A stretch of 64,000 nt of DNA, from positions 4,759 through 68,758 of the forward strand of contig CAIMNS010000049.1 of NCBI GenBank assembly GCA_903842945.1, read 5' to 3'. Origin of the DNA: an uncultured Burkholderiales bacterium (lineage in GTDB: Bacteria; Pseudomonadota; Gammaproteobacteria; Burkholderiales; Burkholderiaceae_C). A program made the position numbers and the translations under genes. This document shows positions 2,383 to 53,031 of the stretch, piece after piece (within the stretch, counting starts at the first letter, position 1; each line of letters opens with the position of its first letter). The notes under the pieces are model-generated. The model was not told where the DNA came from and searched no databases. It saw only the letters and a program-made list of their open reading frames with translations.

Positions 2383-2416
2383 AGCTTAATGGGTACATAT
2401 GAAAGTTACGTGACAT
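2383..2416 (-). promoter_or_regulatory. Pho box promoter for the phoA pair
   Basis: ATGTCAC-GTAA-CTTTCAT (2416-2399), 10 bp, then TAAGCT (2388-2383). Confidence 0.8.
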
Positions 2417-2447: not shown

Positions 2448-2481
2448 GTGTCATGAAAATGTCATTTGAGCTATTTAAGCT
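2448..2481 (+). promoter_or_regulatory. Pho box promoter for ppk2
   Basis: GTGTCAT-GAAA-ATGTCAT (2448-2465), 10 bp, then TAAGCT (2476-2481). Confidence 0.85.
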
Positions 2482-3426: not shown

Positions 3427-4619
3427 GCTGCTGACTTTTGAGGGTTCGTTTTGAAGGGGTTTCTTTGCTCAAGGTGGGCCATGTATTGCTCTACGTTTTG
3501 ACCTTCTTGATTCAAAAACTCGTCCACGGCTTTTGCAAATGAGGGGTGGGCCAGCCAGTGGGCGCTTTGCGTCATGACAGGTAAGAGGGCTCGCGCCATC
3601 TTGTGCTCGCCTTGCGCGCCTCCTTCAAACCGCTCCACGCCTTTTTCAATGCACCACTCAATGGGTTGGTAGTAACAGGCCTCAAAGTGCAGGCAATCTA
3701 CCCGCTCAAGGGCGCCCCAATACCGTCCATAAGCTACCATGGGCTTGTGGTCTGAGTTCCTTTGGAGGGCCACCAAACTGCAGGCCATGGGATGGCCCTC
3801 TCGGTAGGCAATGAACATCACCCAGTTGTCGATCATTTGCTGCTTCATCTCTTCAAAAAAAGAGGGCGTCAAATAGGGTGAATTGCCGTGTTCTAAATAA
3901 GTTTGTTGATAGCAACGGTAAAAAAAATCCCAATGTTCATGGCTGATTTGAGGGCCTTCAAAGGTTTTAAAAGTCACCTGTGCTTGAGATACTTTTTTAC
4001 GTTCTTGTTTGATTTTTTTTCGTTTCTCTTGATTCATCGAATTTAAAAAATCATCAAAATGATCGAATGGTTTTTCATCCAAATTGGCGTTTTGCCAATG
4101 AAATTGAACCGTGTGCCTCTCAAGCATGTGGCACTCTTGCGCAGCCTTCATGTCCGCTTGGCTGGCATAGAGCATGTGGAGTGAAGACACGCCCCAAGTT
4201 AAACATTGATCGAGCACCGCTTGGAGAAGTTCGGTCTTGAGTTCTTGTGTTTTGGCCAGCAAGCGAGATCCTGGTACCGGGCTAAATGGCGGGGCGATCA
4301 GAGCCTTGGGGTAATAATGCAGCCCGTGACGATCATAGGCTTGTGCCCAAGCCCAGTCAAAGACGTATTCCCCATAAGAGTGTGACTTGAGATAAAGGGG
4401 GCATGCAGCAAGGAGCTCATCCTTGGCGTGCAGTGTGAAGTATTTGCAGGTCCAACCCGTTTTGCTTGTTGCACTGGCACTCTCGTGCATGGCGTTCAAG
4501 TATTCATAACGAAGAAAGGGCGTGGGAACAGAATCAGACAATAAAAGCGCATTCCACTGGGTTTTTTCGATGCTGGCCATCGAATCATGCACCTCAATGA
4601 CATAATTGGATTGATTCAT
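3423..4619 (-). CDS. GNAT/FemAB-like protein (DUF482 type)
   Basis: YLKSHSYGEYVFDWAWA, GRYWG, LHFEACYYQPIE, FEGGAQGEHK. Confidence 0.88.
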   Translation of the reverse strand: MNQSNYVIEVHDSMASIEKTQWNALLLSDSVPTPFLRYEYLNAMHESASATSKTGWTCKYFTLHAKDELLAACPLYLKSHSYGEYVFDWAWAQAYDRHGLHYYPKALIAPPFSPVPGSRLLAKTQELKTELLQAVLDQCLTWGVSSLHMLYASQADMKAAQECHMLERHTVQFHWQNANLDEKPFDHFDDFLNSMNQEKRKKIKQERKKVSQAQVTFKTFEGPQISHEHWDFFYRCYQQTYLEHGNSPYLTPSFFEEMKQQMIDNWVMFIAYREGHPMACSLVALQRNSDHKPMVAYGRYWGALERVDCLHFEACYYQPIEWCIEKGVERFEGGAQGEHKMARALLPVMTQSAHWLAHPSFAKAVDEFLNQEGQNVEQYMAHLEQRNPFKTNPQKSAA

Positions 4620-6708: not shown

Positions 6709-7101
6709 CTAAGGACTGATGCGTTGCCACAAGGCGCAGGCCCATACGACGATACAAAACACCAGACTCAACAAGACGGCAGCAGAGCCAAGATCCTTGG
6801 CTCTTTTGGAGAGTGCGTGCCAGTCGTCTCCATGTCGATCGATGGCCGATTCAATGGCGGTGTTCAACAACTCCACCACCATCACCAAAATCAGGGTGCC
6901 AATCAAAAAGCACACCTCTAGCCAATTGGAGCCTAGCCAAAACGCACAGGGCAAGAGGGCAACGAAAACCCAAGCTTCCTGTTGAAAAGCGGGCTCATAC
7001 CAACCGGCTTTCAAGCCCGCCAATGAAAACCCCAGGGCATGGTAGACGCGACTGAACCCTCGACGTTTTTTTTGCGGGTTGAAGGAGTCGGTTTTTTTCA
7101 T
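6709..7101 (-). CDS. dgkA: Diacylglycerol kinase
   Basis: AFQQE, VELLNTAIESAID, AKDLGSAAV. Confidence 0.93.
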   Translation of the reverse strand: MKKTDSFNPQKKRRGFSRVYHALGFSLAGLKAGWYEPAFQQEAWVFVALLPCAFWLGSNWLEVCFLIGTLILVMVVELLNTAIESAIDRHGDDWHALSKRAKDLGSAAVLLSLVFCIVVWACALWQRISP

Positions 7102-13403: not shown

Positions 13404-14723
13404 TTAGATGAAAAGCAGCAAAGCAATCATAGCGGCAGACAGACACGTCGACAGTGTTCCGATCAGCAGGGACTTTGCGCCCATTTGAACGATGTCTCTT
13501 TGCCGATCAGGTGCCATGGAACCCATGCCCGCAATGACAATGCCTAGGCTGCCGAAGTTCGCAAAGCCACAAAGCAAATAAGTCATGAGCACTCTGGAGT
13601 GTTCGCTCATGGCATTGGGGTCCAACTTTGAGAGATCCAAATAAGCAATGAACTCGTTCAAGACCAATTTGGTGCCCATCAGTTGTCCTGCGATTTGGGT
13701 GTCCTTCCATTCGATGCCAAGGGTCCATGAAAAGGGTTGCATCACCCAGCCGATCACGCGCTGTATGGTCAAAGCAGAGCCATCCCAAAGGGGCAGCAGT
13801 TGAAGAATGCTGTTGCCAAGAGACACCAAGGCCACCAAAACAATCAACATGGCAATGACACTTGCGAGTAAGCGCATGCCTTGATAGGTGCCATCACTGA
13901 TGGCATCCATCGTGCTTTGGTATTTTCTGTGTTGATCGGTGCTTTCAATCAATGCTGAGATATAAGCCCTCAATCCATGGTTTTGTAATCCATGAGACTC
14001 GGCCTCAGTGGAGGAGCTCTCAGGCGATGGATCTTTTGGAATGGCCACCAAACTCAAAACAATGGCTCCGGGTGCACTGATCAAGGATGCGATGATCAAA
14101 TGGGTGACCACGTGAGGGACAGAGTTTTGCAGAAAACTTGCATAGATGACGAGCACGGTGCCGGAAATGGTTGACATGCCAGTGCTCATGACGACAAACA
14201 ATTCGGACCTGGAGAGCCCACTTAAATAAGGCCTGATCAGCAAAGGTGCTTCAACAATGCCCACAAAAACGGTTGCAATGCTTGCAAAGGACGTGGCGCC
14301 AGACACATTCAAGATCTTTCCCAGCAACCAAGCAAAACAACCAATGAGCACTGGCAAAACGCGCCAGTAATAAAGCAGCGCTGAAAGGGCGCTGAAGATC
14401 AAAATCAAGGGCAGCGCTTGCAATCCAAGGACAAAGGACATGCCTGGAGACTTTTCTTCAAAGGGCAGTGGCCCTCCACCTAAATAGCCAAAGACCAGTG
14501 AGGTACCCGCTTGGGTGGCTTTTTGAAGTTCAAGGACACTTTGGTTCAAGGTGCCCAAGCAACTTTGTATGAAAGGTATTTTCAAGAGCGCCAAAGCCAA
14601 GACAAACTGAAACAAAAGTCCTTTGGCCAAGCTCTTGTAGTCAATGCGCGCGCGGTTTTCAGATACCCCAATGGTGATCAACAAGATCAAAGAGACACCA
14701 ATCAAAGATTGATAATTTTCCAT
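13404..14723 (-). CDS. nupC: Concentrative nucleoside transporter (CNT/NupC family)
   Basis: ALPLILIFSALSALLYY, FVGIVEAPLLIRPYL, GTKLVLNEFIAY, YLLCGFANFGS. Confidence 0.93.
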   Translation of the reverse strand: MENYQSLIGVSLILLITIGVSENRARIDYKSLAKGLLFQFVLALALLKIPFIQSCLGTLNQSVLELQKATQAGTSLVFGYLGGGPLPFEEKSPGMSFVLGLQALPLILIFSALSALLYYWRVLPVLIGCFAWLLGKILNVSGATSFASIATVFVGIVEAPLLIRPYLSGLSRSELFVVMSTGMSTISGTVLVIYASFLQNSVPHVVTHLIIASLISAPGAIVLSLVAIPKDPSPESSSTEAESHGLQNHGLRAYISALIESTDQHRKYQSTMDAISDGTYQGMRLLASVIAMLIVLVALVSLGNSILQLLPLWDGSALTIQRVIGWVMQPFSWTLGIEWKDTQIAGQLMGTKLVLNEFIAYLDLSKLDPNAMSEHSRVLMTYLLCGFANFGSLGIVIAGMGSMAPDRQRDIVQMGAKSLLIGTLSTCLSAAMIALLLFI

Positions 14724-14764
14724 ACACAGACTTTCCAGTGAAACGATTTAAATGGACTGCTCTT

Positions 14765-15805
14765 TCAAGCGCCCAATCGAATCAAATCATCCTCGGTCAA
14801 ATGTTCGGTTTTTTTTCCAATCCAACTGAGCAGTCGAGATTTCCAGTTTAAAAAAGAGCTTGGCGCTTTGACCGCAGTATACTCAAGTCGGCCTCGCGCA
14901 CCGCGCTTGCGCTTGAAGTCACCTGCGCCTGAGCTGTAATTGAGCAGCAGTTGTCGCTCTAGGGTGTAGTTGTAGATAGAGGCAAACAAGAGCCGATAGA
15001 TGCCCGGCCCGGTTGCACTCTCCCAATAACCCAAAGCGGGAACAGTCAAGGTGTCCCCAACTTGGTGCAGCAAAGCAAAGGCCACCATGTCACCTTCCTC
15101 GTTCATCAAGCTCAAGCAAGACATCCATTTGGAGTTGATCATGTCTTTGAAAAAAACAGGTGTGTAATTGGCATTGAAGACACTGTGTTTTTTGATGTAA
15201 ATGAGCTCATACAAGGCTTGCATGCGTTCAGCTTGAAGGTCATCGATCGTGTCTAGAGTTGAGACCTTGAGGTGGGATTTTTTGAGGGCACTTAAATCTC
15301 TTGCGAGGTGTGAAGGTTTGCTTTGCACGCCCATTCGTAGATCGAATTCATAAATGACACGCGCAGGTAATGCAACAAAGCCCATGCCTTGAAGCTCAGT
15401 CAGGAGTGAGCCGTGTTGATGTGACAGTAAATTCCGCACAAACAGATAGCGCTTTAATTTCTTCAGTATCAAAGAACGACTGGCCTCGCATATGGCCGAG
15501 TCTTTGACCGATTCCCATACATTGGTCGATATGGGAAAGTTCCCAACGATGGCGTTTTTACTCATGCCAATCCAATTGGCCAAATGCGACAAGGCCTTGA
15601 GGGACATTTTTAAAATGAAGGGTCCCTGGAGCTCATCGGCCGCATAGTCAAACCAGGCAATTTTGGGTGAAGTGATGTAACAAGCGGGTAAAGGTTTTTG
15701 CTCGCTGGTCACGGTGACAGGCAAGTCGCCTTGCTCCCAATGAAGTTCTGCGCCAGCGTTCAGCATCCACTCTGAGAGTGAATGACCCCAGGGGGCTGGA
15801 CTCAT
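14765..15805 (-). CDS. Uncharacterised GNAT/FemAB-like protein
   Basis: LYELIYIKKHSVFNANYT, TVPALGY..GIYRLL, LNYSSGAGDFKRKRGA..LEY. The fold assignment is by recollection. ATGA-coupled to btaA. Confidence 0.65.
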   Translation of the reverse strand: MSPAPWGHSLSEWMLNAGAELHWEQGDLPVTVTSEQKPLPACYITSPKIAWFDYAADELQGPFILKMSLKALSHLANWIGMSKNAIVGNFPISTNVWESVKDSAICEASRSLILKKLKRYLFVRNLLSHQHGSLLTELQGMGFVALPARVIYEFDLRMGVQSKPSHLARDLSALKKSHLKVSTLDTIDDLQAERMQALYELIYIKKHSVFNANYTPVFFKDMINSKWMSCLSLMNEEGDMVAFALLHQVGDTLTVPALGYWESATGPGIYRLLFASIYNYTLERQLLLNYSSGAGDFKRKRGARGRLEYTAVKAPSSFLNWKSRLLSWIGKKTEHLTEDDLIRLGA

Positions 15806-17046
15806 CGAGGGTTTAATCGATACAAATGCAAGGCACCATAGATTCCTGATCGATCTTGTGGGCCCAAGAGGTCAGAAGTTTGGTGATCTCTGGTCCACAC
15901 ATTGGCCAAGGGGCCTGTCAGGCAAGCATCAACAGGGGAATGGGAGCCGGCCGTCCTAAAGATGACCCTTGCGCCTGGCTTGGCCGCATGGGTAATGGCC
16001 GTCCACACAGCGGTCAGCTCTTGAGGTGTCATCCAGTCCTGAGCGTCCAAAAGGTTCACAATATCAACCGACTCAGGGCCTAACTTGATCAGTTTGTCTC
16101 TGATGTTGTTGTGTTCTATTGAGATTTTATGGATGGACTCGCGAAGGAAAGCGTAATTCTCTTTGACCAAATAAAGGGGCAAAGCGCTTTGACCCGTCTC
16201 ATCGTATTTTCTAGCAAAGGCTTGCCATGCAAAATAGTTGTCCTTGATGGGGACAACCGTTGCCAACTGCCTAGCCCGTTGTTTGAGGATTTCAGACATC
16301 TGTTCTGGTTTGTTGTCACACAAAGCCAGGTGCTGGCTTGGGGGAATCCCAAGGTTGTACAGTGCATAGGGGCTGCTAGCAATTTTGGTCACCAACCTAG
16401 AGTCGAAAATCTTTGCGACCTTTTGATCAAACCACTGCTTTTGATCTTCGACAGTTTTTTGTTCTAAAAGTTCAGACAGCTTGACGCCGTGCAATTTTGC
16501 CCCCATGTGGATGATGCCAATGATTTGACCCAGCAGTCCATATTTGTAAAAGCCTTTGGCAAACATTTGAATCCTCTTGGATCCAAATGGGCCACTTTCC
16601 CAGTAGTCCCGGCTTTCTTGATCGAGTTGAGGGGAGATGATGGCGTTGTAGATTCTGACATTGCTGGTGGACTTGGCGACCCCAAAGAATCTGAAGAAGT
16701 CTTCATGGTACTCTAGCGTCTTGAGAGCCGCAATTTTCAAGTGATTCAAAGCAATGTGCGCGTGGTTCAGGTCCACAACAGAAATCTTTGCGGGATTGGC
16801 CATGAGATAAGACAAAGCGTTACAGCCGCCCGAGGCAATGGTCAGCATGTGGTCGGTGGCTTGGATGTCTAAAGCTTTCATGTCCACAATGGGGTCTTCC
16901 CAAATTTGTGTGTAAACCAGGCGATCGAACCACATGGCGAAAATCTTATCCTTCAAACTTGCTTTGGATTTATGCCCAAAAACAGCGTTCTTCAACAGTA
17001 CTTTTGACTTCTTGAGACTTAGAGTTGGATTTGGAGCTGCGTTCAT
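15802..17046 (-). CDS. btaA: SAM:diacylglycerol 3-amino-3-carboxypropyltransferase BtaA (DUF3419)
   Basis: LVYTQIWEDPIVDMKAL, TIASGGCNALSYL, DLNHAHIAL, NYFAWQAF, LLDAQDWM, RVIFRTAG, DRSGIYG. Start refined to ATG 17046. Confidence 0.92.
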   Translation of the reverse strand: MNAAPNPTLSLKKSKVLLKNAVFGHKSKASLKDKIFAMWFDRLVYTQIWEDPIVDMKALDIQATDHMLTIASGGCNALSYLMANPAKISVVDLNHAHIALNHLKIAALKTLEYHEDFFRFFGVAKSTSNVRIYNAIISPQLDQESRDYWESGPFGSKRIQMFAKGFYKYGLLGQIIGIIHMGAKLHGVKLSELLEQKTVEDQKQWFDQKVAKIFDSRLVTKIASSPYALYNLGIPPSQHLALCDNKPEQMSEILKQRARQLATVVPIKDNYFAWQAFARKYDETGQSALPLYLVKENYAFLRESIHKISIEHNNIRDKLIKLGPESVDIVNLLDAQDWMTPQELTAVWTAITHAAKPGARVIFRTAGSHSPVDACLTGPLANVWTRDHQTSDLLGPQDRSGIYGALHLYRLNPR

Positions 17047-17106
17047 GGTTGAAATAAATCCTTGTGTTTGAAGATATGTGCGCAATTGTGAACCCTTAAT
17101 ATTTCA

Positions 17107-17140
17107 ATTGAATGTTACTTTTATTACTTTTCCGTGACTT
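17107..17140 (-). promoter_or_regulatory. Candidate Pho box promoter for btaA
   Basis: AAGTCAC-GGAA-AAGTAAT (17140-17123), 10 bp, then a weak -10 TTCAAT. Confidence 0.5.
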
Positions 17141-17226
17141 AAAATTTTCAATTTCCATCCATGATGTTTTCTGCAGGGTTGTTGGCCCCTTTGTTTTTGA
17201 TAAAAATACGGGCTTAAAGCTTCGAC

Positions 17227-17260
17227 ATGTCACAAAGTTTTAATGCTCATGGGGTAACAT
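17227..17260 (+). promoter_or_regulatory. Pho box promoter for the TPAT operon
   Basis: ATGTCAC-AAAG-TTTTAAT (17227-17244), 10 bp, then TAACAT (17255-17260). Confidence 0.72.
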
Positions 17261-17284
17261 ATTTGCCAAATATTGGACACATAA

Positions 17285-18184
17285 ATGTCAAATTCTTGGG
17301 TTAAAAAATTCTTTTCTTTTGCTGGCATCGTCATGGCCTCTTTAGCGATATCCGGCTGTGCGATGAACACCTTTGTCATTGATCAAGTGGCCAAGAACTT
17401 GGTGTCAGACGATGACAATGAGCAAGATCTATGGTTGGCACGCGATGCAAGTCCTTTTTACTTGAAGTTGACGGAAAATTTATTGATCCGCTCTCCTGCT
17501 AATTTAAAACTGGCTGAGACCGTTTGCAGTGGTTTTACGCAGTACGCCTACACTTTTATTGCATTTGAAGCGGACAAGCTGGAGGCCAGTGATTACAAAA
17601 GCGCTGAGATCATCAGAGAGCGAGCATCCAAGATGTATGCGCGTGCCTACAAACACGGTATCAAAGCTTTGAACTTGAGCTTCACAGGTTTTGAGGCAAG
17701 GCTGAGGGCGCCAAATTCTACCGATCCTATCGTCTTACCAGTCAGCTCCGTGGGACTGCTGTATTGGTCTGCTGCTTCTTTGGGGGGTTGGATTTCAAGC
17801 GCCAAGGACATGCCCGACTTGGTGGCAGATTTTCCGGTGGCCTTGCGATTGGCCAGTTTGGCATGGAAATTGGATCCCTCCTACTCACAGGGCTCCTTGG
17901 CCAGTTTGATGGGGACTTTTGAGTGGGCCAACCCCAACGGTTCAAAACCCTTGGCAACACACTATTTCGATCTGGCCCTTCAGTACTCAAAAGATCAAAA
18001 CGCAGGTCCCTTTGTGTCAAAGGCAGAACGAGTTGCTGTCGCCATGAAAGACAAGAAGATGTTTGAGCAACTCCTTAGCAAGGCCATCGACATTGCATTG
18101 AAATATCCAAGTTTACAAAATGAGGCCATGCGACTTCGTGCACAATGGTTGCTTGATAACGCACAAGAGTTACTTGAAAGTTGA
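17285..18184 (+). CDS. tatT: TatT lipoprotein, TPR-like TRAP accessory component (TPAT system)
   Basis: Lipobox LAISGC, helical repeat pattern (CSGFTQYAYTF, LLYWSAASLGGWI), directly upstream of dctP and dctQM. Confidence 0.85.
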   Translation: MSNSWVKKFFSFAGIVMASLAISGCAMNTFVIDQVAKNLVSDDDNEQDLWLARDASPFYLKLTENLLIRSPANLKLAETVCSGFTQYAYTFIAFEADKLEASDYKSAEIIRERASKMYARAYKHGIKALNLSFTGFEARLRAPNSTDPIVLPVSSVGLLYWSAASLGGWISSAKDMPDLVADFPVALRLASLAWKLDPSYSQGSLASLMGTFEWANPNGSKPLATHYFDLALQYSKDQNAGPFVSKAERVAVAMKDKKMFEQLLSKAIDIALKYPSLQNEAMRLRAQWLLDNAQELLES

Positions 18185-19203
18185 AGATGAATTTTAGACC
18201 TCTCGCACGAATCTTTTCCTGTTGCCTGCTTCTTACTTGGGGATCGCTCGCCTTTGCGGCGGACAAACCCCTGAGGATAGGGACCTTGGCGCCTAAAAAT
18301 TCTTTGTATTACAGGCAACTCATTGATGTGGCTGAGGCATGGAAGAGCGCCGCGGGAGCCAACTCCAAATACACCGTTTACGCAGACGGCAGTCAAGGCG
18401 GGGAGACAGAGTTGGCCAGAAGAATGCGAATTGGGCAACTTCAAGGAGCACTCTTGTCTGTCGTGGGTTTGAAGGAGATTGAACCGTCCATCAGTGCTTT
18501 GCAATCCATGCCCTTGCTTTTTAGAACTTGGGAAGAGGTCGATTTCGTCAGGGAAAAGTTGCGCCCCGCCATGGAAAAGAAGTTTTTAGAAAAGGGGTTT
18601 GTTGTCCTGGCCTGGGGGGATGCAGGCTGGGTCAGGTTTTTTTCAAAGGAACCTGCCTTCAAACCCGACGACTATAAAAAAATGAAGTTTTTTTCTTGGG
18701 GGGGAGAACCCGAGCAGCAAGAGATCATGAAGAACTTGGGCTATACACCAGTTCCTTTGGAGACCACGGACATTTTGCCCTCCATACAAACAGGCATGAT
18801 TTCTGTGGTGCCTTCGACGCCTTACTTTGCGATGGCCAGTCAAATTTACAACACGGCCAACAACATGCTTGAGATCAACTGGGCGCCTGTGGTTGGGGCC
18901 TTGGTGATCACCAAAAAAGCCTGGGATGAGATGAGCCCTGCAGTCCAAGACGTGGTTCGATCGGCTGGTGAAAAGGCGGGAGACCAAATCAGGATCAAAG
19001 CCCGTTTGGAAGTTGAAGAGGCCGTTGAGGCCATGAAAAAGAGAGGTTTGGTGGTGAACAAGCCAAGCCCCGAGCAAATGAAAGAGTGGAATACTTTGGC
19101 CGCGAACCTCTACCCCAAGATCAGGGGCACGATGGTGCCCGCAGAAACGTTTGATGAAGTGTTCAAACATTTGAATGCATTCAGAGCCGGCAAGCAAAAG
19201 TGA
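18181..19203 (+). CDS. dctP: TRAP substrate-binding protein DctP (TatP type)
   Basis: LRIGTLAPKNS, GSQGGETELARRMRIGQLQG, LAWGDAGWVRFFSK. Confidence 0.92.
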   Translation: MKMNFRPLARIFSCCLLLTWGSLAFAADKPLRIGTLAPKNSLYYRQLIDVAEAWKSAAGANSKYTVYADGSQGGETELARRMRIGQLQGALLSVVGLKEIEPSISALQSMPLLFRTWEEVDFVREKLRPAMEKKFLEKGFVVLAWGDAGWVRFFSKEPAFKPDDYKKMKFFSWGGEPEQQEIMKNLGYTPVPLETTDILPSIQTGMISVVPSTPYFAMASQIYNTANNMLEINWAPVVGALVITKKAWDEMSPAVQDVVRSAGEKAGDQIRIKARLEVEEAVEAMKKRGLVVNKPSPEQMKEWNTLAANLYPKIRGTMVPAETFDEVFKHLNAFRAGKQK

Positions 19204-20996
19204 AGTTGAATCCCTTCAAACTGGATGAATTGATTTCATCCCTTGCTTTGCTGTTGATGGCCATCATCCCCGTCGTTGAAATCCTTGCCCGCCCCATTTT
19301 TGGTAAAGGCATTGAGAACGCTCCCATCTTGGTTCAGCACTTTGGTCTGGTCATGTCGATGTTTGGTGCCATAGCGGCCTATCGATTTGGACATCTTTCA
19401 AGCATTGGTGTGATTTTTTACTCTTTTCAGGTCCCAGCGCGTCTTTTGTCGAGTTTAATTTGTGGCCTCTTGTGCTGGGCTTGTTGGCATTTTGTGAGCA
19501 CAGAAAGGTCGGCCCATCAAATGCTGGCTTACTCGATTCCAATTTGGATTTTTCAGTTGGTGATGCCTGTTGGGTTTTTGCTTTTGAGTTGGCAAATCAT
19601 CACGCAAGGTTTGCAATCAAACCTGCCGAAGGCGATGTCTATTCTAGGCATGACGGCCGTCAGTTATTTGCTCTTTCAGTATCTTGAGTCGAATGCAGGG
19701 TCCATGGGGTCCATGGGGTTTGTGTTGGTTGTTTTGGTGGTGATGTTTTTAGGTGGGGCACCTATCTTCTCCATCATTGCAGCCTTGGCCTTGGGCTTGT
19801 TTTGGCAAGAGGGTTTGCCATTGTCTTCGGTGGCCCTGTCACATTACCAAATCACCGTCAATGCTTCATTGCCCGCATTGCCCTTGTTCACCCTGGCGGG
19901 CTTGGTCTTTGCGTCCACGGGGTCAGCCAAGCGTTTGGGCCAAGTTTTCATGGCCATGTTTGGCACGGGCGTGAGGGGAACGGTCTTTGCAGCGACCGTT
20001 TTGTGCTCATTTTTTACGGCTTTTACCGGAGGCAGTGGCGTGACCATTTTGGCGCTTGGGGGTCTGTTGCTTCAATTGTTAAGTGACACGGGCTATTCCA
20101 AAAAAAGGGGGATCAGTCTGGTAACCAGTGCCAGCGCACTTGGCGTTTTGCTGGCACCTTCTGTGCCATTGATCATGTATGCGATCATTGCTCGCGTTCC
20201 GATCAATGCCATGTTTTTGGCTGGTATCGTGCCTGCGGTGGTCATGGTTTTGTCTTTATTGGTCTTTGGTGGCTATTTGAAGCAGGACAATCTAGTTGCT
20301 TCAAATGAGCATGTGCATGTTTTTTCTTGGTTGAAATTAAGGCATGCGTTGTGGGATGCCAAATGGGAGATTTTCACGCCCTTTGTTGCCATTGGCTCTT
20401 TGGTCAGTGGATTTGCAACCCCGACAGAGAGCGCTGCGATCACGGCTGTTTATGCCCTTGTCACGCAAATGATCTTTAACCAAGAGTTGAGCGTGGATCA
20501 ATTCAAGCAGTCCTTGCTCAAGTGCACACAAATCATTGGAGGCGTGATGCTGGTGCTTGGCATGGCCCTTGGGATGACCAATTACTTGATCGATGCAGGA
20601 ATTCCTGACCTGGCCATCCAATGGGTTCAAAGCATCACCAGCAACAGGTACGTTTTTTTATTGGCCCTCAATGTATTTTTATTTTTTGCTGGGGCCCTCA
20701 TGGAAATCTATGCGGCCATTGTGGTGTTGGTGCCTTTGTTGTTGCCTTTGGCCATGTCCTATGACATTCATCCCATTCATTTCGGGATCATCTTTTTGGC
20801 CAACATGGAGATGGGATTTTTATGTCCACCTGCCGGCATGAATATCTATTTTGCCTCAGCGGTCTTTAACCAGCCCTTGAAGGAGGTGGCCATCTCTATT
20901 TGGCCTGCATTGATCGCAATTTTTGTTGGCACTGTGATCATCTCGTGGCTTCCCATACTCACGATTGCCTTGCCTGAGTTTTTTCACATGGTCTAA
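19200..20996 (+). CDS. dctM: TRAP fused small/large permease DctQM
   Basis: About 600 aa polytopic protein. LPALPLFTLAG, TAFTGGSGVTILALG, PTESAA, HPIHFGIIFLANME.GFLCPPAGMN. Confidence 0.93.
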   Translation: MKLNPFKLDELISSLALLLMAIIPVVEILARPIFGKGIENAPILVQHFGLVMSMFGAIAAYRFGHLSSIGVIFYSFQVPARLLSSLICGLLCWACWHFVSTERSAHQMLAYSIPIWIFQLVMPVGFLLLSWQIITQGLQSNLPKAMSILGMTAVSYLLFQYLESNAGSMGSMGFVLVVLVVMFLGGAPIFSIIAALALGLFWQEGLPLSSVALSHYQITVNASLPALPLFTLAGLVFASTGSAKRLGQVFMAMFGTGVRGTVFAATVLCSFFTAFTGGSGVTILALGGLLLQLLSDTGYSKKRGISLVTSASALGVLLAPSVPLIMYAIIARVPINAMFLAGIVPAVVMVLSLLVFGGYLKQDNLVASNEHVHVFSWLKLRHALWDAKWEIFTPFVAIGSLVSGFATPTESAAITAVYALVTQMIFNQELSVDQFKQSLLKCTQIIGGVMLVLGMALGMTNYLIDAGIPDLAIQWVQSITSNRYVFLLALNVFLFFAGALMEIYAAIVVLVPLLLPLAMSYDIHPIHFGIIFLANMEMGFLCPPAGMNIYFASAVFNQPLKEVAISIWPALIAIFVGTVIISWLPILTIALPEFFHMV

Positions 20997-21005
20997 CGAT
21001 AACCA

Positions 21006-22256
21006 ATGGCCTTAAAAATGATCAACCGTCTTTCTTTTCAACACGCCTTCCTTGTCTTTGTCCTTCACTGCCTTTGTGCATTGACCCTCAACAGCTTTGC
21101 TCAAAGCAACGCGCCAAAAAAGCCATTGGTCCTTCTCCTTGGGATCGATGGTTTTAAGCCAAGTTATTTGAATTTAGGCGTCTCACCGAATTTGAATTCT
21201 CTGGTATCAACTGGGGTCCTTGCAAAAGGATCTATCTCTGCCTTCCCGTCCTTGACTTTTCCAAATTTTGTGAGTTTGGTCACAGGCCTCACCCCCGATC
21301 ACCATGGTATTGTGAACAACACCATGACCGATCCGACAACAGATCAGCTCTTTACCTTGGGTTCAAGAGAGGCCGTTGAGAACCCTTTTTGGTGGACGCA
21401 AACCACACCGATTTGGAACAATGTAAGGCAACAAGGCGGGATTGCTTCTGCCATGTTTTGGCCCGGTTCTGAAGTTGAAATCAACGGTGGGCGGCCCAAC
21501 GATTGGGTCAGGTATGAGCATGGCATGTCTCACGACAAGAGACTTGAGCACTTGTTGACATGGTTGTCTAGAGGTGAGTCTTCAAGACCCCATTTCGCCA
21601 CACTGTACCTCTCCGATGTGGACTCTGCTGGGCATGAGTTTGGACCCGATAGCGAACAGGTCAAACAAGCAGTCGCTAAAGTAGATCAGACCCTAGGGAA
21701 ATTGCTGCAAGCACTTTCTAGCTTGGGTTTAAGAGAAAAAACCACCCTGGTGATCGTTTCTGATCACGGCATGGCCAACACGCCTTTGGATAAATCCCTT
21801 GATGTCAGTCAGTGGCTCAAAGATTTCCCTAAAGCCAAGTGGGAGTGGCAAGGTGCCACTTCAGCTGTCAGACTCCATGGTGAAAATGCAGCTCAAGTTC
21901 TCCAGACCTTGTCTCTTCAGTCCCATCTGCAATGCCATGAAAAAAGCAACTTGCCCGAGCGCTATAAGTTTGGACGGCATCCAAGAATTCCTGAAATTGT
22001 TTGTGTGTCTGACATGGGCTACACCGTCACGGCCAATCCCAGTCGAAAAGGACCCCTGGGTCAGCACGGGTTTGACCCCTTTTTGCCTGAAATGCATGGA
22101 CTCTTTTTGGCCTCGGGTTTTCGCATCCAACCTGGTGAATTGGGTTTGATTGAAAACATCGAGGTGTACCCGCTGTTGTGTCAATTGCTGGGTATTGTTG
22201 AGCAAAAAAATGATGCAAGGCATCTTTTGAAAGAGATCGTTTTGAATCCATCGTGA
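21006..22256 (+). CDS. Nucleotide pyrophosphatase/phosphodiesterase (NPP, alkaline phosphatase superfamily), secreted
   Basis: GIDGF, FPSLTFPNFVSLVTG (Thr nucleophile), DSAGHEFGP, VSDHGM, GQHGFD. Sec signal. Confidence 0.92.
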   Translation: MALKMINRLSFQHAFLVFVLHCLCALTLNSFAQSNAPKKPLVLLLGIDGFKPSYLNLGVSPNLNSLVSTGVLAKGSISAFPSLTFPNFVSLVTGLTPDHHGIVNNTMTDPTTDQLFTLGSREAVENPFWWTQTTPIWNNVRQQGGIASAMFWPGSEVEINGGRPNDWVRYEHGMSHDKRLEHLLTWLSRGESSRPHFATLYLSDVDSAGHEFGPDSEQVKQAVAKVDQTLGKLLQALSSLGLREKTTLVIVSDHGMANTPLDKSLDVSQWLKDFPKAKWEWQGATSAVRLHGENAAQVLQTLSLQSHLQCHEKSNLPERYKFGRHPRIPEIVCVSDMGYTVTANPSRKGPLGQHGFDPFLPEMHGLFLASGFRIQPGELGLIENIEVYPLLCQLLGIVEQKNDARHLLKEIVLNPS

Positions 22257-22272
22257 AGTCAAGGATGGATTT

Positions 22273-22299
22273 AAAAAGGCACCAAATCGGTGCCTTTTT
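22273..22299. terminator. Bidirectional intrinsic terminator after the NPP gene
   Basis: Perfect inverted repeat AAAAAGGCACC-AAATC-GGTGCCTTTTT. Confidence 0.85.
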
Positions 22300-22410
22300 A
22301 AATTGTGAAATGTAAATCAAAACCATTGAATCCAAAAGTAATATGAAATGATCGAATTGGATTGTCGCTCTATTGAAACGTTCATGTTTCGGGCCAAGGG
22401 TTATCCATGT

Positions 22411-22444
22411 CTGTCACAAGAATGTAACCAAGTTTTAGCACAAT
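22411..22444 (+). promoter_or_regulatory. Pho box promoter for the exbD-tonB-TBDR-exbB operon
   Basis: CTGTCAC-AAGA-ATGTAAC (22411-22428), 10 bp, then CACAAT (22439-22444). Confidence 0.78.
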
Positions 22445-22450
22445 ACTTCC

Positions 22451-22903
22451 ATGCGAAGATTCCCTCAACAAGCTAGGAAAAAGTCACGAATAGAAATCAT
22501 CCCAATGATCGATGTGATGATGTTTTTGTTGGTTTTTTTTGTACTGATCAGCATCAACGTGATACCTGCTTTGGGCATCAAGATGAACTTGCCCAGTGCC
22601 AACTCGGTCAAAGAAGAACACCCACCCGTTCGGGTCATCTTGGGCATAGGTTCTGATGGTACTTACCAACTCGAAGGACAAACATTTGCCTCTCTTGAAG
22701 GTTTGAAGGCTTCTTTGTTGGCGATCAAAAACCAAAATGAAGCCAAATCCAACAACATTACATCAAGGCCCTCCAGCGCTCGCTTGGCGGTCATCATCAA
22801 CGGCGATGAACTATCTCCCTTGCAGCGATTGGTCGATGTGATGGACATGCTCAAGTCCAATGGGATTGATTCCATGACCATTGCGGCAAAGAAAAAGCAG
22901 TAA
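22451..22903 (+). CDS. exbD: Biopolymer transport protein ExbD
   Basis: IEIIPMIDVMMFLLVFF TM motif, INGD...QRLVDVMD. Confidence 0.93.
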   Translation: MRRFPQQARKKSRIEIIPMIDVMMFLLVFFVLISINVIPALGIKMNLPSANSVKEEHPPVRVILGIGSDGTYQLEGQTFASLEGLKASLLAIKNQNEAKSNNITSRPSSARLAVIINGDELSPLQRLVDVMDMLKSNGIDSMTIAAKKKQ

Positions 22904-22905
22904 AA

Positions 22906-23610
22906 ATGAGTGCCGCTCTTGCTTGGACTTATGAAAAAAGAGATCCCATCTCTTATGCCAGCGCCTTTTTTTTTGGTGTGTTGATTTTATGGTTGATTCA
23001 ATTCTCAGCCCTCGAATTGTCCCGAAACAATGAGCTTGAAATGACCGCCTTCATCGAGTCGCCCCCAGCGCCTGAAATCATCAAGCCTCAAGAGCCTGTG
23101 AAGAAGGTGATTGAAAAGCAAGAGATGCTCAAAAAGCCAGAGATGGTCATGCCAAAGCAGGTGACATCGCCGTTTGCAACAGAAGCGCCAAGGGAGGTGA
23201 AGCAAGCTGAGGCCCCATTGCCGATCGAAAAACCTCAAGTGCATCAAGCACCGCCCCCAGTTGCACTCCCCGCACAAGCGCCAGCTTCAGCGCCAGCGGC
23301 ATCCTCTGTCGCCAGTATTTATGAAGCTCAACTAAGAGCTTACTTGGAAAAAATCAAGCGCTATCCCACCAGCCGTGAAGCCAGGCTCACCAGGCCACAA
23401 GGTGCGGTGCGTGTGTGGTTGGAAATCTCCAGAAGCGGGCAGGTTTTGGGTGTGGGTGTGATGAGCTCATCGGGTTCGAATTTATTGGATGGAGAGGCTT
23501 TGAAAACTTTGAAGAATGGTTTTTATCCTGCTTTTCCTGATGAGGCCTATGTGGGTGAAAGCGCACACAAGTTTTCTGCGACCCTCAGCTACACGCTGGA
23601 GGCGCAATAG
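22906..23610 (+). CDS. tonB: Energy transducer TonB
   Basis: N-terminal TM, Pro-rich linker, KRYPTSREA..QGAVRV..SSGSNLLDGEAL C-terminal domain. Confidence 0.88.
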   Translation: MSAALAWTYEKRDPISYASAFFFGVLILWLIQFSALELSRNNELEMTAFIESPPAPEIIKPQEPVKKVIEKQEMLKKPEMVMPKQVTSPFATEAPREVKQAEAPLPIEKPQVHQAPPPVALPAQAPASAPAASSVASIYEAQLRAYLEKIKRYPTSREARLTRPQGAVRVWLEISRSGQVLGVGVMSSSGSNLLDGEALKTLKNGFYPAFPDEAYVGESAHKFSATLSYTLEAQ

Positions 23611-23671
23611 TTTTTTTGTTAGTTTTTGTTGGATTCAATTAGTTTTTGTTAATTATTTTTAGGAGAAAAAA

Positions 23672-26065
23672 ATGAAGAAGTCGAATCGTGTCTTTCAGCT
23701 GTCCTTGTTGAGCATTGCTCTTTTGGGCACCGGTTATTTTTCATCCGCTTTGGCACAAAAGGCACCTACCGATGTGGGTACAGTCAAAATCACGGGTGAA
23801 GGCGATGCTTTAGGCAATGGACTTTTGATTGATGAAGACAGTGTGAAAACAAAAAGCACAGTCACCAAAGCGATGATTGACAAAGAGCGTCCAACAGCAA
23901 ATGCTTTCCAAGTTTTGAATTTGATGCCCAGTGTCAATGCTTCTAGCTACGATGCGACAGGACTTTTTGGCGGTAATTTAAGGGTCAGAGGTTTTGACAG
24001 CTCCCAGATGGGTTTCACCATCAATGGAGCTCCTGTGAACGACTCTGGTAACTTTGCGATTTATCCACAAGAGTATTCTGATATTGAAAACATGTGTGAA
24101 GTCTTCATCACCCAGGGATCTGTGGATACAGATGCTCCTCATGTGGGCGCCTCAGGGGGTAACGTTGGTATGGTCAGTTGCTCACCCAAAGACACCTTTG
24201 GTGGCAGATTCACGGGCTCTTTGGGGGACTTGAATTTCAAGCGTTCGTTTTTACGCTTGGATACAGGTTTGATTGGCAAGGAACATCCTTTCAAAGCTTT
24301 TGTATCTTACTCAGCCGCTCAAGTCGACAAGTTCAAAGGACTCGGTGCGGCGAACCGTCATCACATCGATGTCGGTATGGATTGGAAACTGACCGACAAC
24401 ACAACATTGACATCCAACTTGCTGTATAACTTTGCAGTCAACAGCAATTTTTTGACTTTGACCAAAGGGGAGAATGCTCAAAATTCATCGCTTGACTTCA
24501 GCTCATCTGTGCCGCAACACTTGGCTTCTGGCAATGAGAACACCACGGCCAATTTTGGTACGAGCAGCGCTGGTGCAGTGCCAAGAGCCAAGTTGGCCTA
24601 CTATGGTTACTCTTTGAATCCCTTTGAGAACTATCTTTTCACATCGCGTTTGCAAACTCGAATCGATGACAAATTGACCTTGAGTGCAGAGCCTTACTTT
24701 TGGTACGGTTATGGCACCGGTGGTACCCAACAAACAACTCTTGCTGAGTCCAGCACAGGATTTCGCGGAGGTATTGCTGACATCAACAAAAATGGCAACA
24801 CCACGGACACCGTGGGCATCTACCGTGGAAGTGTGACCCAGACGAACCGTCCTGGTATCACGTTCAAAGCCAATTACGATTTAGGTGATCACAAGATCCT
24901 AGCTGGACTGTGGATGGAGCAAGCCCGCCACCGTCAAACTCAACCCGCTACCACCTTGGACAACAACGGGACCATTTCTGATTTGTGGTTGAGAAACAAT
25001 TTGTTGCGTTACAACGATGGCAGTTTGTATGAAGGTAGAAACTACAAAACTGTCTCCACCGGTTATTCCTTGTTCTTACAAGACACCATTTCCATGGGTC
25101 GTTTGGACATCATTCCCGGTGTGAGATTCTCTTCTATCAAGCGTGACTTCACCAACTATGCATCTAGTGGCTCGGGTTTGGGCGCAGATTATTCTGCTGA
25201 CAAAACCTATGCCAAGCCTTTGGTTTCTTTAGGTGCTCGTTACAAAATCGACGACGCTTTGCAAGCTTATGCCAATGTTTCTCAAAACATGCGCGCACCG
25301 TCTAACTTCGTTTTGTCAAGCTGGGTCACCGGTGGCACTTATGCCAATGGCGCTTTGACTGGGTATAAGCTAGTTCCCAACAACTCCATTCAAGCTGAGA
25401 CCTCGGTCGCCACTGAAGCCGGACTGCGCATCACAGAAGGTGACATCAAGGGTTCTATCTCCTTGTTCCAAGTCAACTTCAAAAATCGTCTTGCTTCTGG
25501 TTTCAATCCCGATACAGCCACTTACACTGACTACAACGTTGGCGACTCGACCATCAAGGGTTTAGAGTTGCAAATGGGATCCAAGCCAGTCAACGGCTGG
25601 AGTGTGTTTGGTTCTGCAACGTACACACAAAGTAAAATCTTAAACAACTTCCCCGCAACTGCAACCAGCACACTGCCAACGTCTGGCTCGATGTTCCCAG
25701 ATACACCTGAGTGGATGTACGGTGCTTCAGTTCAATACGCTTCAGGTCCTTATCTCGCGTCCTTGTCTGGCAAATACACGGGCAAGCGCTTCACAACACT
25801 TGTCAACGATGAGTTCTTGGATGCCTATACCGTTTTTGACTTGAATGCAGGATATCGCTTTGAAAATGGCACTTTCTTTAAGAGCCCCACCGTGCGTTTG
25901 AACGTGAGCAACTTGTTCAACAAGAACTATTTGATTGCCAACTCTGGAAGTGGTTCAAACATCACCACCTCGACAACGGCACCAAGTTCACAAGGCGGTG
26001 GTTTTCCCAGCTATTACGTTGGAGCCCCGAGGTTTGTCAGCATGTCATTTGGCACTGATTTCTAA
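23672..26065 (+). CDS. TonB-dependent outer membrane receptor
   Basis: Signal peptide, TonB-box-like DVGTVKI, plug LRVRGF...TINGAPVND, NVSNLFNKNY, terminal Phe. AGGAG RBS. Confidence 0.93.
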   Translation: MKKSNRVFQLSLLSIALLGTGYFSSALAQKAPTDVGTVKITGEGDALGNGLLIDEDSVKTKSTVTKAMIDKERPTANAFQVLNLMPSVNASSYDATGLFGGNLRVRGFDSSQMGFTINGAPVNDSGNFAIYPQEYSDIENMCEVFITQGSVDTDAPHVGASGGNVGMVSCSPKDTFGGRFTGSLGDLNFKRSFLRLDTGLIGKEHPFKAFVSYSAAQVDKFKGLGAANRHHIDVGMDWKLTDNTTLTSNLLYNFAVNSNFLTLTKGENAQNSSLDFSSSVPQHLASGNENTTANFGTSSAGAVPRAKLAYYGYSLNPFENYLFTSRLQTRIDDKLTLSAEPYFWYGYGTGGTQQTTLAESSTGFRGGIADINKNGNTTDTVGIYRGSVTQTNRPGITFKANYDLGDHKILAGLWMEQARHRQTQPATTLDNNGTISDLWLRNNLLRYNDGSLYEGRNYKTVSTGYSLFLQDTISMGRLDIIPGVRFSSIKRDFTNYASSGSGLGADYSADKTYAKPLVSLGARYKIDDALQAYANVSQNMRAPSNFVLSSWVTGGTYANGALTGYKLVPNNSIQAETSVATEAGLRITEGDIKGSISLFQVNFKNRLASGFNPDTATYTDYNVGDSTIKGLELQMGSKPVNGWSVFGSATYTQSKILNNFPATATSTLPTSGSMFPDTPEWMYGASVQYASGPYLASLSGKYTGKRFTTLVNDEFLDAYTVFDLNAGYRFENGTFFKSPTVRLNVSNLFNKNYLIANSGSGSNITTSTTAPSSQGGGFPSYYVGAPRFVSMSFGTDF

Positions 26066-26071
26066 ACCTAC

Positions 26072-26632
26072 ATGACTGAGTTTTTACACCAAGCTTCGTT
26101 TGGGTTGATGATCATCTCTGCCATCATTGCAACTGTGGTGAGCGTAGAGAGGATCATCTTCTCCAGTATGAATTTAAAGCGGGCCAAGCAGTTGACGCTC
26201 TGCGTTGAGTCGCAAAAGGGCTCTGTTAGCACTTTGTTAGGAAAAGATGTTGTGTCTGAGATGGTTCAAAAAATCCTTGATGACAAAGCTCAAAATTTTC
26301 CTGAGTCCGTTCAACATGACCGAGCTGATGCAGCGTTCATTCACGCCAAAGATGAATTGGGTGCCAGGCTTTGGATACTTGACACGATCGTCACTGCCGC
26401 GCCCTTGATGGGCCTCTTGGGGACCATTTTCGGTATCGTGGATACTTTTTTGGCCTTGTCTAAATCTGGTATGTCTGACCCTGCAGGTGTGAGTGCAGGC
26501 ATTGGAACGGCTCTTTACGCGACGGCACTTGGAATTTCAATTGCCTTGATTGGTCTTTTCGCATTCAACTTTTTGAGTGTTCGCAATGAGAGGATAGGGG
26601 AGCATTTGAAGATGCTGATTTTGCGACTCTAG
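26072..26632 (+). CDS. exbB: ExbB (MotA/TolQ/ExbB proton channel)
   Basis: LDTIVTAAPLMGLLGTIFGI, GIGTALYATALG. Confidence 0.92.
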   Translation: MTEFLHQASFGLMIISAIIATVVSVERIIFSSMNLKRAKQLTLCVESQKGSVSTLLGKDVVSEMVQKILDDKAQNFPESVQHDRADAAFIHAKDELGARLWILDTIVTAAPLMGLLGTIFGIVDTFLALSKSGMSDPAGVSAGIGTALYATALGISIALIGLFAFNFLSVRNERIGEHLKMLILRL

Positions 26633-26657: not shown

Positions 26658-26699
26658 GCCGTTAACTGCCAGCGTGATCCAGTTAACGGCTTCTTTTTT
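26658..26699 (+). terminator. Intrinsic terminator after exbB
   Basis: GCCGTTAACTG...CAGTTAACGGC 11-bp stem followed by TTCTTTTTT. Confidence 0.8.
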
Positions 26700-43994: not shown

Positions 43995-44013
43995 GACGCA
44001 TCGTTGAAAAAAC

Positions 44014-44562: not shown

Positions 44563-44573
44563 GGATGGGCTCT

Positions 44574-45344: not shown

Positions 45345-45358
45345 GCGTTTAAAAAAAC

Positions 45359-46303: not shown

Positions 46304-46323
46304 AAAAGACTCCATAAAAGACA

Positions 46324-47175: not shown

Positions 47176-47252
47176 TGGAAATCGTGCAATTTGACCCAGT
47201 TTGACAATACTTTGTGTCAGCTTCTTTACAAACCTCAAATTTGAAGCGCTTT

Positions 47253-53024: not shown

Positions 53025-53031
53025 GTCTGTA

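Follow-up and report, generated by a model that had tools for sequence, protein, structure and literature searches.

The DNA described here is a stretch of 64,000 nt from an uncultured Burkholderiales bacterium, and 'the window' always means this whole stretch. At positions 13404-26632, it carries a segment of eleven genes that brings together a btaA-type lipid gene, a transporter of the TPAT type, a phosphodiesterase (NPP) and a TonB-dependent uptake cassette. The segment is flanked by ilvBHC on one side and by psd-pssA-leuA on the other. Replacement of phospholipids by phosphorus (P)-free lipids is a major response of aquatic bacteria to P scarcity, and the known routes lead through PlcP and Agt to glycolipids, through OlsBA to aminolipids and through BtaAB to a betaine lipid.

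Genes, transcription units and Pho-box-like sites

An earlier note on this DNA, made from its letters and open reading frames (ORFs), had listed the genes and grouped them into three units. Its gene content and coordinates hold for all eleven genes when compared with the ORF list, Pfam and NCBIfam, and its three units are correct as judged from gene overlaps, short gaps and terminators. The genes, and two terminators read by eye, are the following.

13404-14723, minus strand: nupC, concentrative nucleoside transporter, last gene of the btaA unit (Pfam Nucleos_tra2_C, _N and Gate, E 2.8e-67)
14765-15805, minus strand: tandem-GNAT transferase of 346 aa, in the btaB position (AlphaFold (AF2) model and Foldseek; no Pfam or NCBIfam match)
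15802-17085, minus strand: btaA (DUF3419), S-adenosylmethionine (SAM):diacylglycerol 3-amino-3-carboxypropyl transferase type (PF11899, E 8.3e-99)
17285-18184, plus strand: tatT, putative lipoprotein (PF16811, E 1.4e-45)
18181-19203, plus strand: dctP/tatP, periplasmic binding protein (PF03480)
19200-20996, plus strand: fused dctQM membrane component (PF06808 and PF04290; TIGR00786 above cut-off)
21006-22256, plus strand: NPP, last gene of the tatT unit (PF01663, E 3.8e-82)
22278-22299, plus strand: intrinsic terminator after NPP, GGCACC-loop-GGTGCC-TTTTT
22451-22903, plus strand: exbD (PF02472, E 7e-27)
22906-23610, plus strand: tonB (PF03544 and TIGR01352)
23672-26065, plus strand: TonB-dependent outer-membrane receptor (plug PF07715 and barrel PF00593)
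26072-26632, plus strand: exbB, last gene of the cassette (PF01618, E 4e-24)
26659-26699, plus strand: intrinsic terminator after exbB, CCGTTAACTG...CAGTTAACGG, then a T run

Overlaps of 4 bp join btaA to the tandem-GNAT gene, tatT to dctP and dctP to dctQM, and a gap of only 9 bp separates dctQM from the NPP gene. The 41 bp between the tandem-GNAT gene and nupC hold no terminator-like site listed by a simple terminator scan, and a metatranscriptome contig bridges this junction (14484-14856), which is weak evidence since DNA carry-over is possible. The same scan listed neither of the terminators read by eye (22278-22299 and 26659-26699); the stem of the hairpin after NPP is kept in five relatives despite changes on both of its arms.

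The earlier note had also called the segment an island. This stands in the sense of an insertion between ilvC and psd in one clade, and fails in the sense of deviant composition or mobility: the guanine-cytosine (GC) content, 0.43-0.50, equals that of the flanks, and Pfam finds no integrase or transposase among the eleven genes, the segment borders not having been searched for repeats. Rfam finds no RNA element in the window.

The motif TGTCAYN5TGTMAY was scanned over the 64 kb, with expected counts taken from shuffled sequence. It has 32 matches with at most two mismatches (31.3 expected) and four with at most one (2.5 expected). The count by itself is not significant, and the argument for regulation rests on position and conservation. 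All four of the better matches are intergenic, in a genome stretch where intergenic DNA makes up about 6% of the first 30 kb (our own count from the ORF list), and all face P-related genes: one lies 5′ of tatT, one 5′ of exbD, and the only equally good sites elsewhere in the 64 kb are the two between an alkaline phosphatase gene (phoA) and ppk2. The sites of this divergent promoter region are an internal positive control for the motif.

17123-17139, minus strand: Pho-box-like site of the btaA unit, AGTCACGGAAAAGTAAT, 2 mismatches
17228-17244, plus strand: Pho-box-like site of the tatT unit, TGTCACAAAGTTTTAAT, 1 mismatch
22412-22428, plus strand: Pho-box-like site of the exbD unit, TGTCACAAGAATGTAAC, 0 mismatches
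882-2354, minus strand: phoA, outside the segment, with a Pho box at 2399-2415 (minus)
2515-3426, plus strand: ppk2, outside the segment, with a Pho box at 2449-2465 (plus)

In Escherichia coli promoters activated by PhoB, the Pho box consists of two 7-bp direct repeats 11 bp apart, takes the place of the -35 element and is followed about 10 bp later by the -10 element. The tatT and exbD sites match this geometry, with -10-like sequences (TAACAT at 17255-17260 and CACAAT at 22439-22444) each 10 bp downstream of the box; the btaA site is weaker, and has an additional GTAAC half-site beside it at 17114-17118. When the spacers were aligned with those of five relatives, whose proteins are 65-96% identical to those of the window, the tatT and exbD sites stood out as invariant blocks, and the btaA site as a near-invariant one, within otherwise diverged sequence. 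An analogous site, TGTCACTGATTTTTCAC, precedes tatT in two further loci (L016 and L020), and similar sites are found 5′ of tatT, olsB, btaA, corA and a phosphonate transporter in more distant ones. Each of the three units thus has a conserved site at promoter distance, as the earlier note had it, and co-regulation of the three by PhoB looks borne out by the sites and their conservation. Pho control of the units is well supported at the level of sequence because the sites sit in promoters of P-related genes and stay conserved in relatives. Two lake metatranscriptomes cover the segment at a depth of 0-5, from relatives at 90-95% identity, and are uninformative on induction by P limitation.

Some details of these promoters deserve a separate mention. 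The geometry of the exbD promoter puts the start of transcription at the annotated start codon or no more than a few bases from it; this ATG (22451) is invariant in relatives. exbD would have either a leaderless mRNA or a translation start at a downstream Met, and one relative is called at 131 aa, not 149. The phoA gene beside ppk2 is one of two tandem alkaline phosphatase genes, both on the minus strand and divergent to ppk2 (1-783, cut by the window edge, and 882-2354). In L016 and L020, too, two phoA genes in tandem come after the btaA pair.

BtaA, its tandem-GNAT partner and the TPAT transporter

Operons of btaA and btaB that make the betaine lipid diacylglyceryltrimethylhomoserine (DGTS) have been described in Rhodobacter sphaeroides, Sinorhizobium meliloti and marine roseobacters, where they are Pho-regulated and often lie beside plcP, in the order plcP-btaA-btaB (PMC4796936). 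The first gene of the present unit fits this pattern. Its product matches PF11899 over profile positions 7-384 of 385 and is 41-44% identical, over at least 92% of its length, to DUF3419 proteins of Rhizobium, Sinorhizobium and Shinella; this full-length match and the rhizobial homology uphold the earlier note's view of it as a genuine BtaA-type enzyme. The protein has no N-terminal signal-like sequence. Its gene probably starts at the ATG at 17046, and the proteins called in relatives have 413 aa. As in the known operons, a DUF3419 protein of about 410 aa is encoded behind a Pho-box-like site, the next gene overlaps it by 4 bp, and plcP, agt or olsB are neighbours of the pair in relatives, with plcP adjoining it in several.

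The second gene is where the likeness ends. In R. leguminosarum, whose btaA is 41.5% identical to that of the window, a class I SAM methyltransferase gene (btaB) comes next with a 4-bp overlap, whereas here the overlapping gene encodes a 346-aa tandem-GNAT transferase with no methyltransferase domain. The same was seen in two other loci (L028 and L047), where no methyltransferase gene or btaB adjoins btaA. A tandem-GNAT gene in the btaB slot is the most unusual feature of the locus, and one on which the earlier note did not remark.

The 346-aa protein has no match in Pfam (at E 1e-3), in NCBIfam or in a profile search of PDB sequences, although some of its relatives match PF13480 or PF04339. 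An AF2 model built from 27 sequences has a tandem-GNAT fold (pLDDT 89.6, pTM 0.89), and its best Foldseek matches are L-PGS, A-PGS, MprF and DUF2156 domains, followed by FemX (E 5e-11 to 1e-8, TM 0.51-0.57), with L-PGS 4v36 at probability 1.00, E 5e-11 and TM 0.55. Tandem GNATs that depend on acyl-CoA come lower in the list. The label 'GNAT' given to the protein by the earlier note is therefore right for the fold of the predicted structure, and finds no counterpart in a Pfam or NCBIfam match of the protein itself. Aminoacyl-phosphatidylglycerol (aminoacyl-PG) synthases, which include the C-terminal domain of MprF and DUF2156 proteins, and FemX attach an amino acid to the head group of a lipid or to a precursor of the cell wall. 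The partner of BtaA is like them in its predicted structure, and differs in having neither a sequence-level match to them nor a membrane domain; on the model, we describe it as fold-like to aminoacyl-PG synthases and do not file it as a member of the family.

How closely this protein is tied to BtaA was seen when genomes, one for each species, were searched with an alignment built on the 346-aa protein; 41 loci were returned. The two genes are adjacent in 35 of them; three of the six exceptions are truncated contigs, which leaves 35 of 38 informative loci. These span Burkholderiales and Rhizobiales, and all other neighbours of the pair vary. The best match is a metagenome-assembled genome (MAG), 'Betaproteobacteria bacterium ELA468' (96%), and most of the others are freshwater Burkholderiales (Limnohabitans, Polynucleobacter and Comamonadaceae MAGs), with a few Rhizobiales. 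Sequencing runs that hold the segment itself come mainly from lake and freshwater metagenomes, and some from biofilm and seawater.

Since the tandem-GNAT gene replaces btaB, the predicted product of the pair is a homoserine lipid other than DGTS. Judging from the modelled fold, the likeliest reaction of the enzyme is transfer of an acyl or aminoacyl group to the free amine of diacylglyceryl-homoserine, and the 4-bp overlap implies that its gene is probably translationally coupled to btaA. A limited literature search found no description of a btaA/DUF3419 gene with a GNAT partner, and the pairing appears to be undescribed.

A profile search of 1.8 billion representatives gave 1112 members of the wider family, with only about 14 clusters scoring within the range of the btaA-linked subfamily. 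A fusion of BtaA with the tandem-GNAT protein was looked for among long family members, as a Rosetta-stone check, and was not what they contain; the fusions are with ATP-grasp or Rieske domains instead. Three distant members (P0399, P0415 and P0491; 660-766 aa) carry an N-terminal ATP-grasp domain, which hints that the wider tandem-GNAT family takes part in amide-bond-forming pathways. The window itself encodes a 398-aa FemAB_like protein directly after ppk2 (3423-4619, minus strand; PF04339, E 7.6e-135), which shares its broad fold class with the BtaA partner and has weak profile similarity to it (hhalign probability 7%). In the complete genome of a cultured bacterium, Piscinibacterium candidicorallinum (L047, 6633-12172), the btaA pair has as its neighbours a gene for a 'choice-of-anchor I' protein and one for a hydrolase of the phospholipase/carboxylesterase family.

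The divergent unit encodes a genuine TPAT, in agreement with the earlier note. The tatT (PF16811), dctP and dctQM genes form one overlapping series; the best PDB matches of TatT are Tp0956 (5.5e-12) and Es_TatT 8g52 (1.4e-5; palmitate-bound, from Enhygromyxa), and those of DctP are the Tp0957 entries. TatT has a lipobox, LAISG/C, at residues 20-25. Arg147 of SiaP aligns with Phe171 of DctP, in a KFF[SA]W motif conserved across five TPAT binding proteins, and by this alignment DctP is of the Tp0957 type, without the carboxylate-selecting arginine of TRAP systems. Only 3% of TRAP binding proteins have no arginine here, and Phe is the commonest substitution (PMC4646407). TPATs are described as handling hydrophobic ligands (PMC5812351, PMC11713862), and the TatT proteins of Treponema pallidum and Enhygromyxa salina bind long-chain fatty acids (PMC11713862). 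The present system shares with that of T. pallidum (Tp0956 TatT, Tp0957 TatP, TatQM) and with E. salina TatT the same four components, a lipobox-bearing TatT and an arginine-less binding protein. It differs from them in its binding protein, which carries a normal signal sequence in place of a lipobox, and in its operon, which has a Pho-box-like site, a terminal NPP gene and surroundings of P-starvation and P-free-lipid genes.

That the TPAT belongs with the lipid genes, as the earlier note proposed, is supported by its continued linkage to P-free-lipid genes in relatives. It adjoins btaA in the clade of the window and also, without an NPP gene, in the Limnohabitans-like loci L016, L020 and L021, in which TatT is 50% identical. 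The order in L020 is agt-plcP-olsB, olsA, dctQM-dctP-tatT, corA, btaA-GNAT-like, porin, phoA, phoA; in L016, a different receptor with exbB-exbD-tonB lies directly 5′ of btaA. Five Limnohabitans loci, including that of an L. curvus isolate, have ppk2-dgkA, a divergent tatT-dctP-dctQM, olsA and olsB-plcP-agt; all but one of the five continue past ppk2-dgkA with pst-phoU-phoBR and corA. A limited literature search found no description of TatT in connection with phosphate limitation. A Pho-controlled TPAT that is kept linked to lipid-renovation genes, as these sequences suggest, appears to be undescribed.

Another gene that handles diacylglycerol (DAG) lies near the transporter in these bacteria: in L051, L052, L053, L073 and L074, all from Limnohabitans, ppk2-dgkA is directly divergent to tatT. 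In the window, dgkA, for a DAG kinase, is found at 6709-7101 on the minus strand, about 4 kb from ppk2.

NPP, the TonB cassette and nupC

The closest solved relative of the NPP is that of Xanthomonas axonopodis (2gsn; E 1.9e-80 over the whole catalytic domain). The enzyme of the window matches the nucleotide-type ENPP1, 3, 4 and 5 at E 1e-63 to 1e-57, and the lipid-type ENPP2, 6 and 7 at about 1e-43. Thr84, Asn105 and the Asp and His metal ligands (in GIDG, DSAGH, SDHG and QHG motifs) align with those of the Xanthomonas enzyme, in whose structure we take them to be the nucleophile, an active-site Asn and the ligands of a two-metal site. Phe85 and Tyr170 are conserved as well; they correspond to Phe91 and Tyr174 there, presumably the base-stacking pair. 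What differs from Xanthomonas is the setting, since the NPP gene of the window ends a TRAP operon directly upstream of a TonB cassette. The N-terminus is a hydrophobic signal-like sequence, so any product of the enzyme would be released outside the cytoplasm. Altogether, the NPP looks nucleotide-type and secreted, and because of this, and of the presence of nupC in the btaA unit, nucleotide scavenging seems to fit better than phospholipid import.

The receptor has the plug and barrel domains of TonB-dependent transporters, whose barrels have 22 strands, and adjacent exbB, exbD and tonB genes provide a dedicated energiser. No NCBIfam model reaches its cut-off on the receptor (the best scores 115.9 bits against a cut-off of 223.5), no PDB sequence matches it at E 1e-8, and no Fur box is present, the best match being 12/19. 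Orthologues that are 41-64% identical keep the order exbD-tonB-TBDR-exbB (TBDR, TonB-dependent receptor) in four other loci of Burkholderiales (L054, L055, L056 and L067). The four genes, in this unusual order with exbB last, appear as a unit in changing surroundings and may be a self-contained uptake cassette. In L054 (64% identity), a UshA-type 5′-nucleotidase gene with a Pho-box-like site precedes the cassette in the position that NPP has in the window. In L067 (56% identity), NPP lies directly before exbD-tonB-TBDR-exbB, and a phytase-like esterase is encoded divergently.

Such a combination is familiar at the level of a regulon. The PhoB regulon of Caulobacter crescentus includes TonB-dependent receptors, a nucleotide pyrophosphatase, phosphatases and lipid-remodelling enzymes (PMC11208175). 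There, the genes are dispersed, and neither a TPAT nor btaA is among them, whereas in the present DNA they share 13 kb, and the window holds further P genes outside the segment. The half of the segment made up of NPP, the TonB cassette and nupC is an ordinary kind of Pho-regulon content, and the clustering itself is ordinary Pho-regulon biology. The earlier note had known of no description of the combination; this does not hold for the regulon-level mix, which is known from Caulobacter (PMC11208175), and seems to hold for the btaA-tandem-GNAT pair and the Pho-linked TPAT.

Two probable functional blocks and rival explanations

Searching every fetched locus with all proteins of the segment by tblastn showed that the whole segment, in the same order between ilvC and psd, is found only in the clade of the window (L001-L003, L010-L014 and L057-L059), so that the neighbourhood check proposed by the earlier note, co-occurrence of the four modules as a set, fails outside one narrow clade. 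Elsewhere, the modules re-assort into two sets, the btaA/tandem-GNAT pair with the TPAT and the NPP gene with the TonB cassette, and the segment is a junction of these two blocks.

On these grounds, we consider it probable that the segment is a PhoB-controlled P-starvation cluster of a freshwater Burkholderiales bacterium, in which three operons serve two functional blocks and not one pathway. The gene identities, the operon structure, the conserved Pho-box-like sites and the linkage of modules in relatives are established. In the first block, membrane renovation, BtaA would move the aminocarboxypropyl group of SAM onto DAG to give diacylglyceryl-homoserine, and the tandem-GNAT enzyme, in the place of BtaB, would acylate or aminoacylate the amino group of this head group to give a P-free lipid other than DGTS. 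The TPAT would support this renovation by importing a hydrophobic ligand, for which a compound of the long-chain fatty-acid type is the likeliest candidate. In the second block, scavenging, the receptor energised by ExbB-ExbD-TonB would take an organophosphate across the outer membrane, the secreted NPP would split nucleotide-type phosphodiester or pyrophosphate bonds, the products of the nearby phoA genes with their Pho boxes would release phosphate, and NupC would recover the nucleoside. Every substrate in this scheme, the reaction of the tandem-GNAT enzyme and induction by low phosphate are what we infer from the sequence.

Several observations weigh against this reading. The structural match of the tandem-GNAT protein is at the level of the fold (about 12% identity, TM about 0.55), and the fold includes acyl-CoA-dependent enzymes. 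NPP sits in the TPAT operon and not in the TonB unit, so that operon boundaries cut across the two blocks and would also allow a functional link between the TPAT and NPP. No plcP is present in the 64-kb window, and a source of DAG is not seen there; agt, olsB, pstS and phoBR were likewise searched for in the window and none was found. The cassette occurs without a P-related neighbour or a Pho box in L055 and L056, and NPP occurs alone in unrelated contexts in L060 to L066, these NPP-side contexts coming from a metagenome scan. The lineages in which the TPAT is linked to lipid genes are all related (Comamonadaceae-like), and ancestry retained under selection is as likely an explanation of the linkage as repeated re-association. 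The RNA evidence consists of low-depth lake metatranscriptome contigs only.

The earlier note had joined the units into a single linear pathway, in which the receptor imports a phospholipid-like or other phosphodiester, NPP removes the P, the TPAT carries the lipophilic part and BtaA uses the DAG for a P-free lipid; spelled out, NPP would cleave off the P-containing head group in the periplasm and the TPAT would take the remainder into the cell. All units do stand together under Pho-box-like sites, the NPP gene closes the TPAT operon, and lipid-cleaving eukaryotic enzymes (ENPP2, 6 and 7) are present among the matches of NPP; the hydrophobic ligands of TPATs would suit such a route too (PMC5812351, PMC11713862). 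The proposal nevertheless has little to recommend it once the modules are followed into relatives, where the four are together only in the clade of the window and Limnohabitans-like loci have the TPAT and btaA without NPP. Phe85 and Tyr170 are conserved in the enzyme, which matches nucleotide-type NPPs at E 1e-80 to 1e-57 and lipid-type ones much less well (1e-43); a 5′-nucleotidase takes its position in L054, and nupC is left unexplained. The signal-like sequence of NPP would place its product outside the cytoplasm, whereas BtaA has no such sequence. The known ligands of TatT are fatty acids and not DAG (PMC11713862), and characterised systems supply BtaA with DAG from the cell's own phospholipids through PlcP (PMC4796936). 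Somewhat less improbable, though still unlikely, is that the TPAT is itself a P-acquisition system, importing a lysophospholipid or an alkyl phosphate or phosphonate that PlcP-type enzymes split inside the cell into phosphate and DAG or acyl chains. Pho-regulated importers usually carry P compounds, as Ugp, Phn and Pst do, the TPAT lies between pst-phoBR and plcP in Limnohabitans, and a binding protein without the arginine argues against a simple carboxylate ligand. We know, however, of no TRAP system that carries a phosphate ester, and long-chain fatty acids are the only ligands shown for TatT (PMC11713862).

The uptake cassette could in principle serve iron-siderophore or other non-P uptake and merely adjoin P genes. 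Its relatives carry the annotation 'iron complex outermembrane receptor protein', models of siderophore receptors match it in part, and L055 and L056 show it without P-related neighbours. We regard this as very improbable, the NCBIfam scores being far under their cut-offs (at best 115.9 against 223.5 bits) and the best Fur-box match reaching only 12/19, while the perfect Pho box of exbD is invariant in five relatives and an NPP, phytase-like or 5′-nucleotidase gene lies directly 5′ of the cassette in three lineages. As for the tandem-GNAT protein, it might act on peptidoglycan or a soluble metabolite, unrelated to the product of BtaA, with a btaB elsewhere completing DGTS. Only 64 kb of the genome are visible, so that btaB could sit elsewhere; the related Pfam families FemAB_like and Acetyltransf_6 are annotated for peptidoglycan and cellulose functions, and distant members are fused to ATP-grasp, not to BtaA. 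Yet the gene stays beside btaA in 35 of 38 informative loci while other neighbours change, it occupies the exact position of btaB in canonical operons with an overlap that implies translational coupling, and the enzymes that its model resembles best have lipid head groups as substrates, which makes an unrelated function unlikely.

Within the preferred account of two blocks under PhoB, the boldest part is offered tentatively, as a possibility that we would rate somewhat below an even chance: that the btaA pair makes a new P-free lipid, either diacylglyceryl-homoserine aminoacylated from aminoacyl-tRNA in the manner of MprF or FemX or an acylated form of it, in neither case trimethylated, and that the Pho-controlled TPAT is a dedicated importer of lipids or fatty acids. 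The physiological role of TPATs has been unclear since 2012, and the binding of fatty acids by TatT was shown only recently; if the proposal is true, this orphan class of transporters would gain its first physiological role outside spirochaetes. The locus thus yields two specific and apparently undescribed hypotheses. One is the lipid of the btaA-tandem-GNAT pair, where an MprF/FemX-like transferase in the place of BtaB predicts a new head group; the pair is carried by abundant freshwater Burkholderiales, relatives of Limnohabitans and Polynucleobacter among them, and its cultured carriers include Polynucleobacter bastaniensis and Piscinibacterium candidicorallinum. The other is the Pho-controlled TPAT, whose Pho-box-like site near lipid-renovation genes points to P limitation as the condition in which to study it, with cultured carriers such as Limnohabitans curvus. 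The scavenging half offers a candidate receptor for nucleotide-type organophosphates.

Further P-related genes are found along the window and in the relatives. An operon for phosphonate C-P lyase occupies about 44000-53069 on the minus strand, with PhnI at 51240-52379 and an amidohydrolase at 47253-48413, and weak Pho-box-like sites (2 mismatches) lie at 53293 and 53583. In the P-starvation clusters of the Limnohabitans type, conserved proteins of 330, 227 and 180 aa without a Pfam match recur (L016 3420-4412, minus strand; L016 14241-14924; L020 15615-16298; L004 11106-11648), and the gene for the 330-aa protein has a Pho-box-like site upstream. Beyond the C-P lyase operon, the window encodes a CorA-like channel (55512-56822, minus strand) and a porin (57343-58494, plus strand). 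CorA-like genes and porins are also found within the Pho and lipid clusters of L006, L008, L016, L020 and L051, and the CorA-like protein may be a member of the Pho regulon with an unrecognised role.

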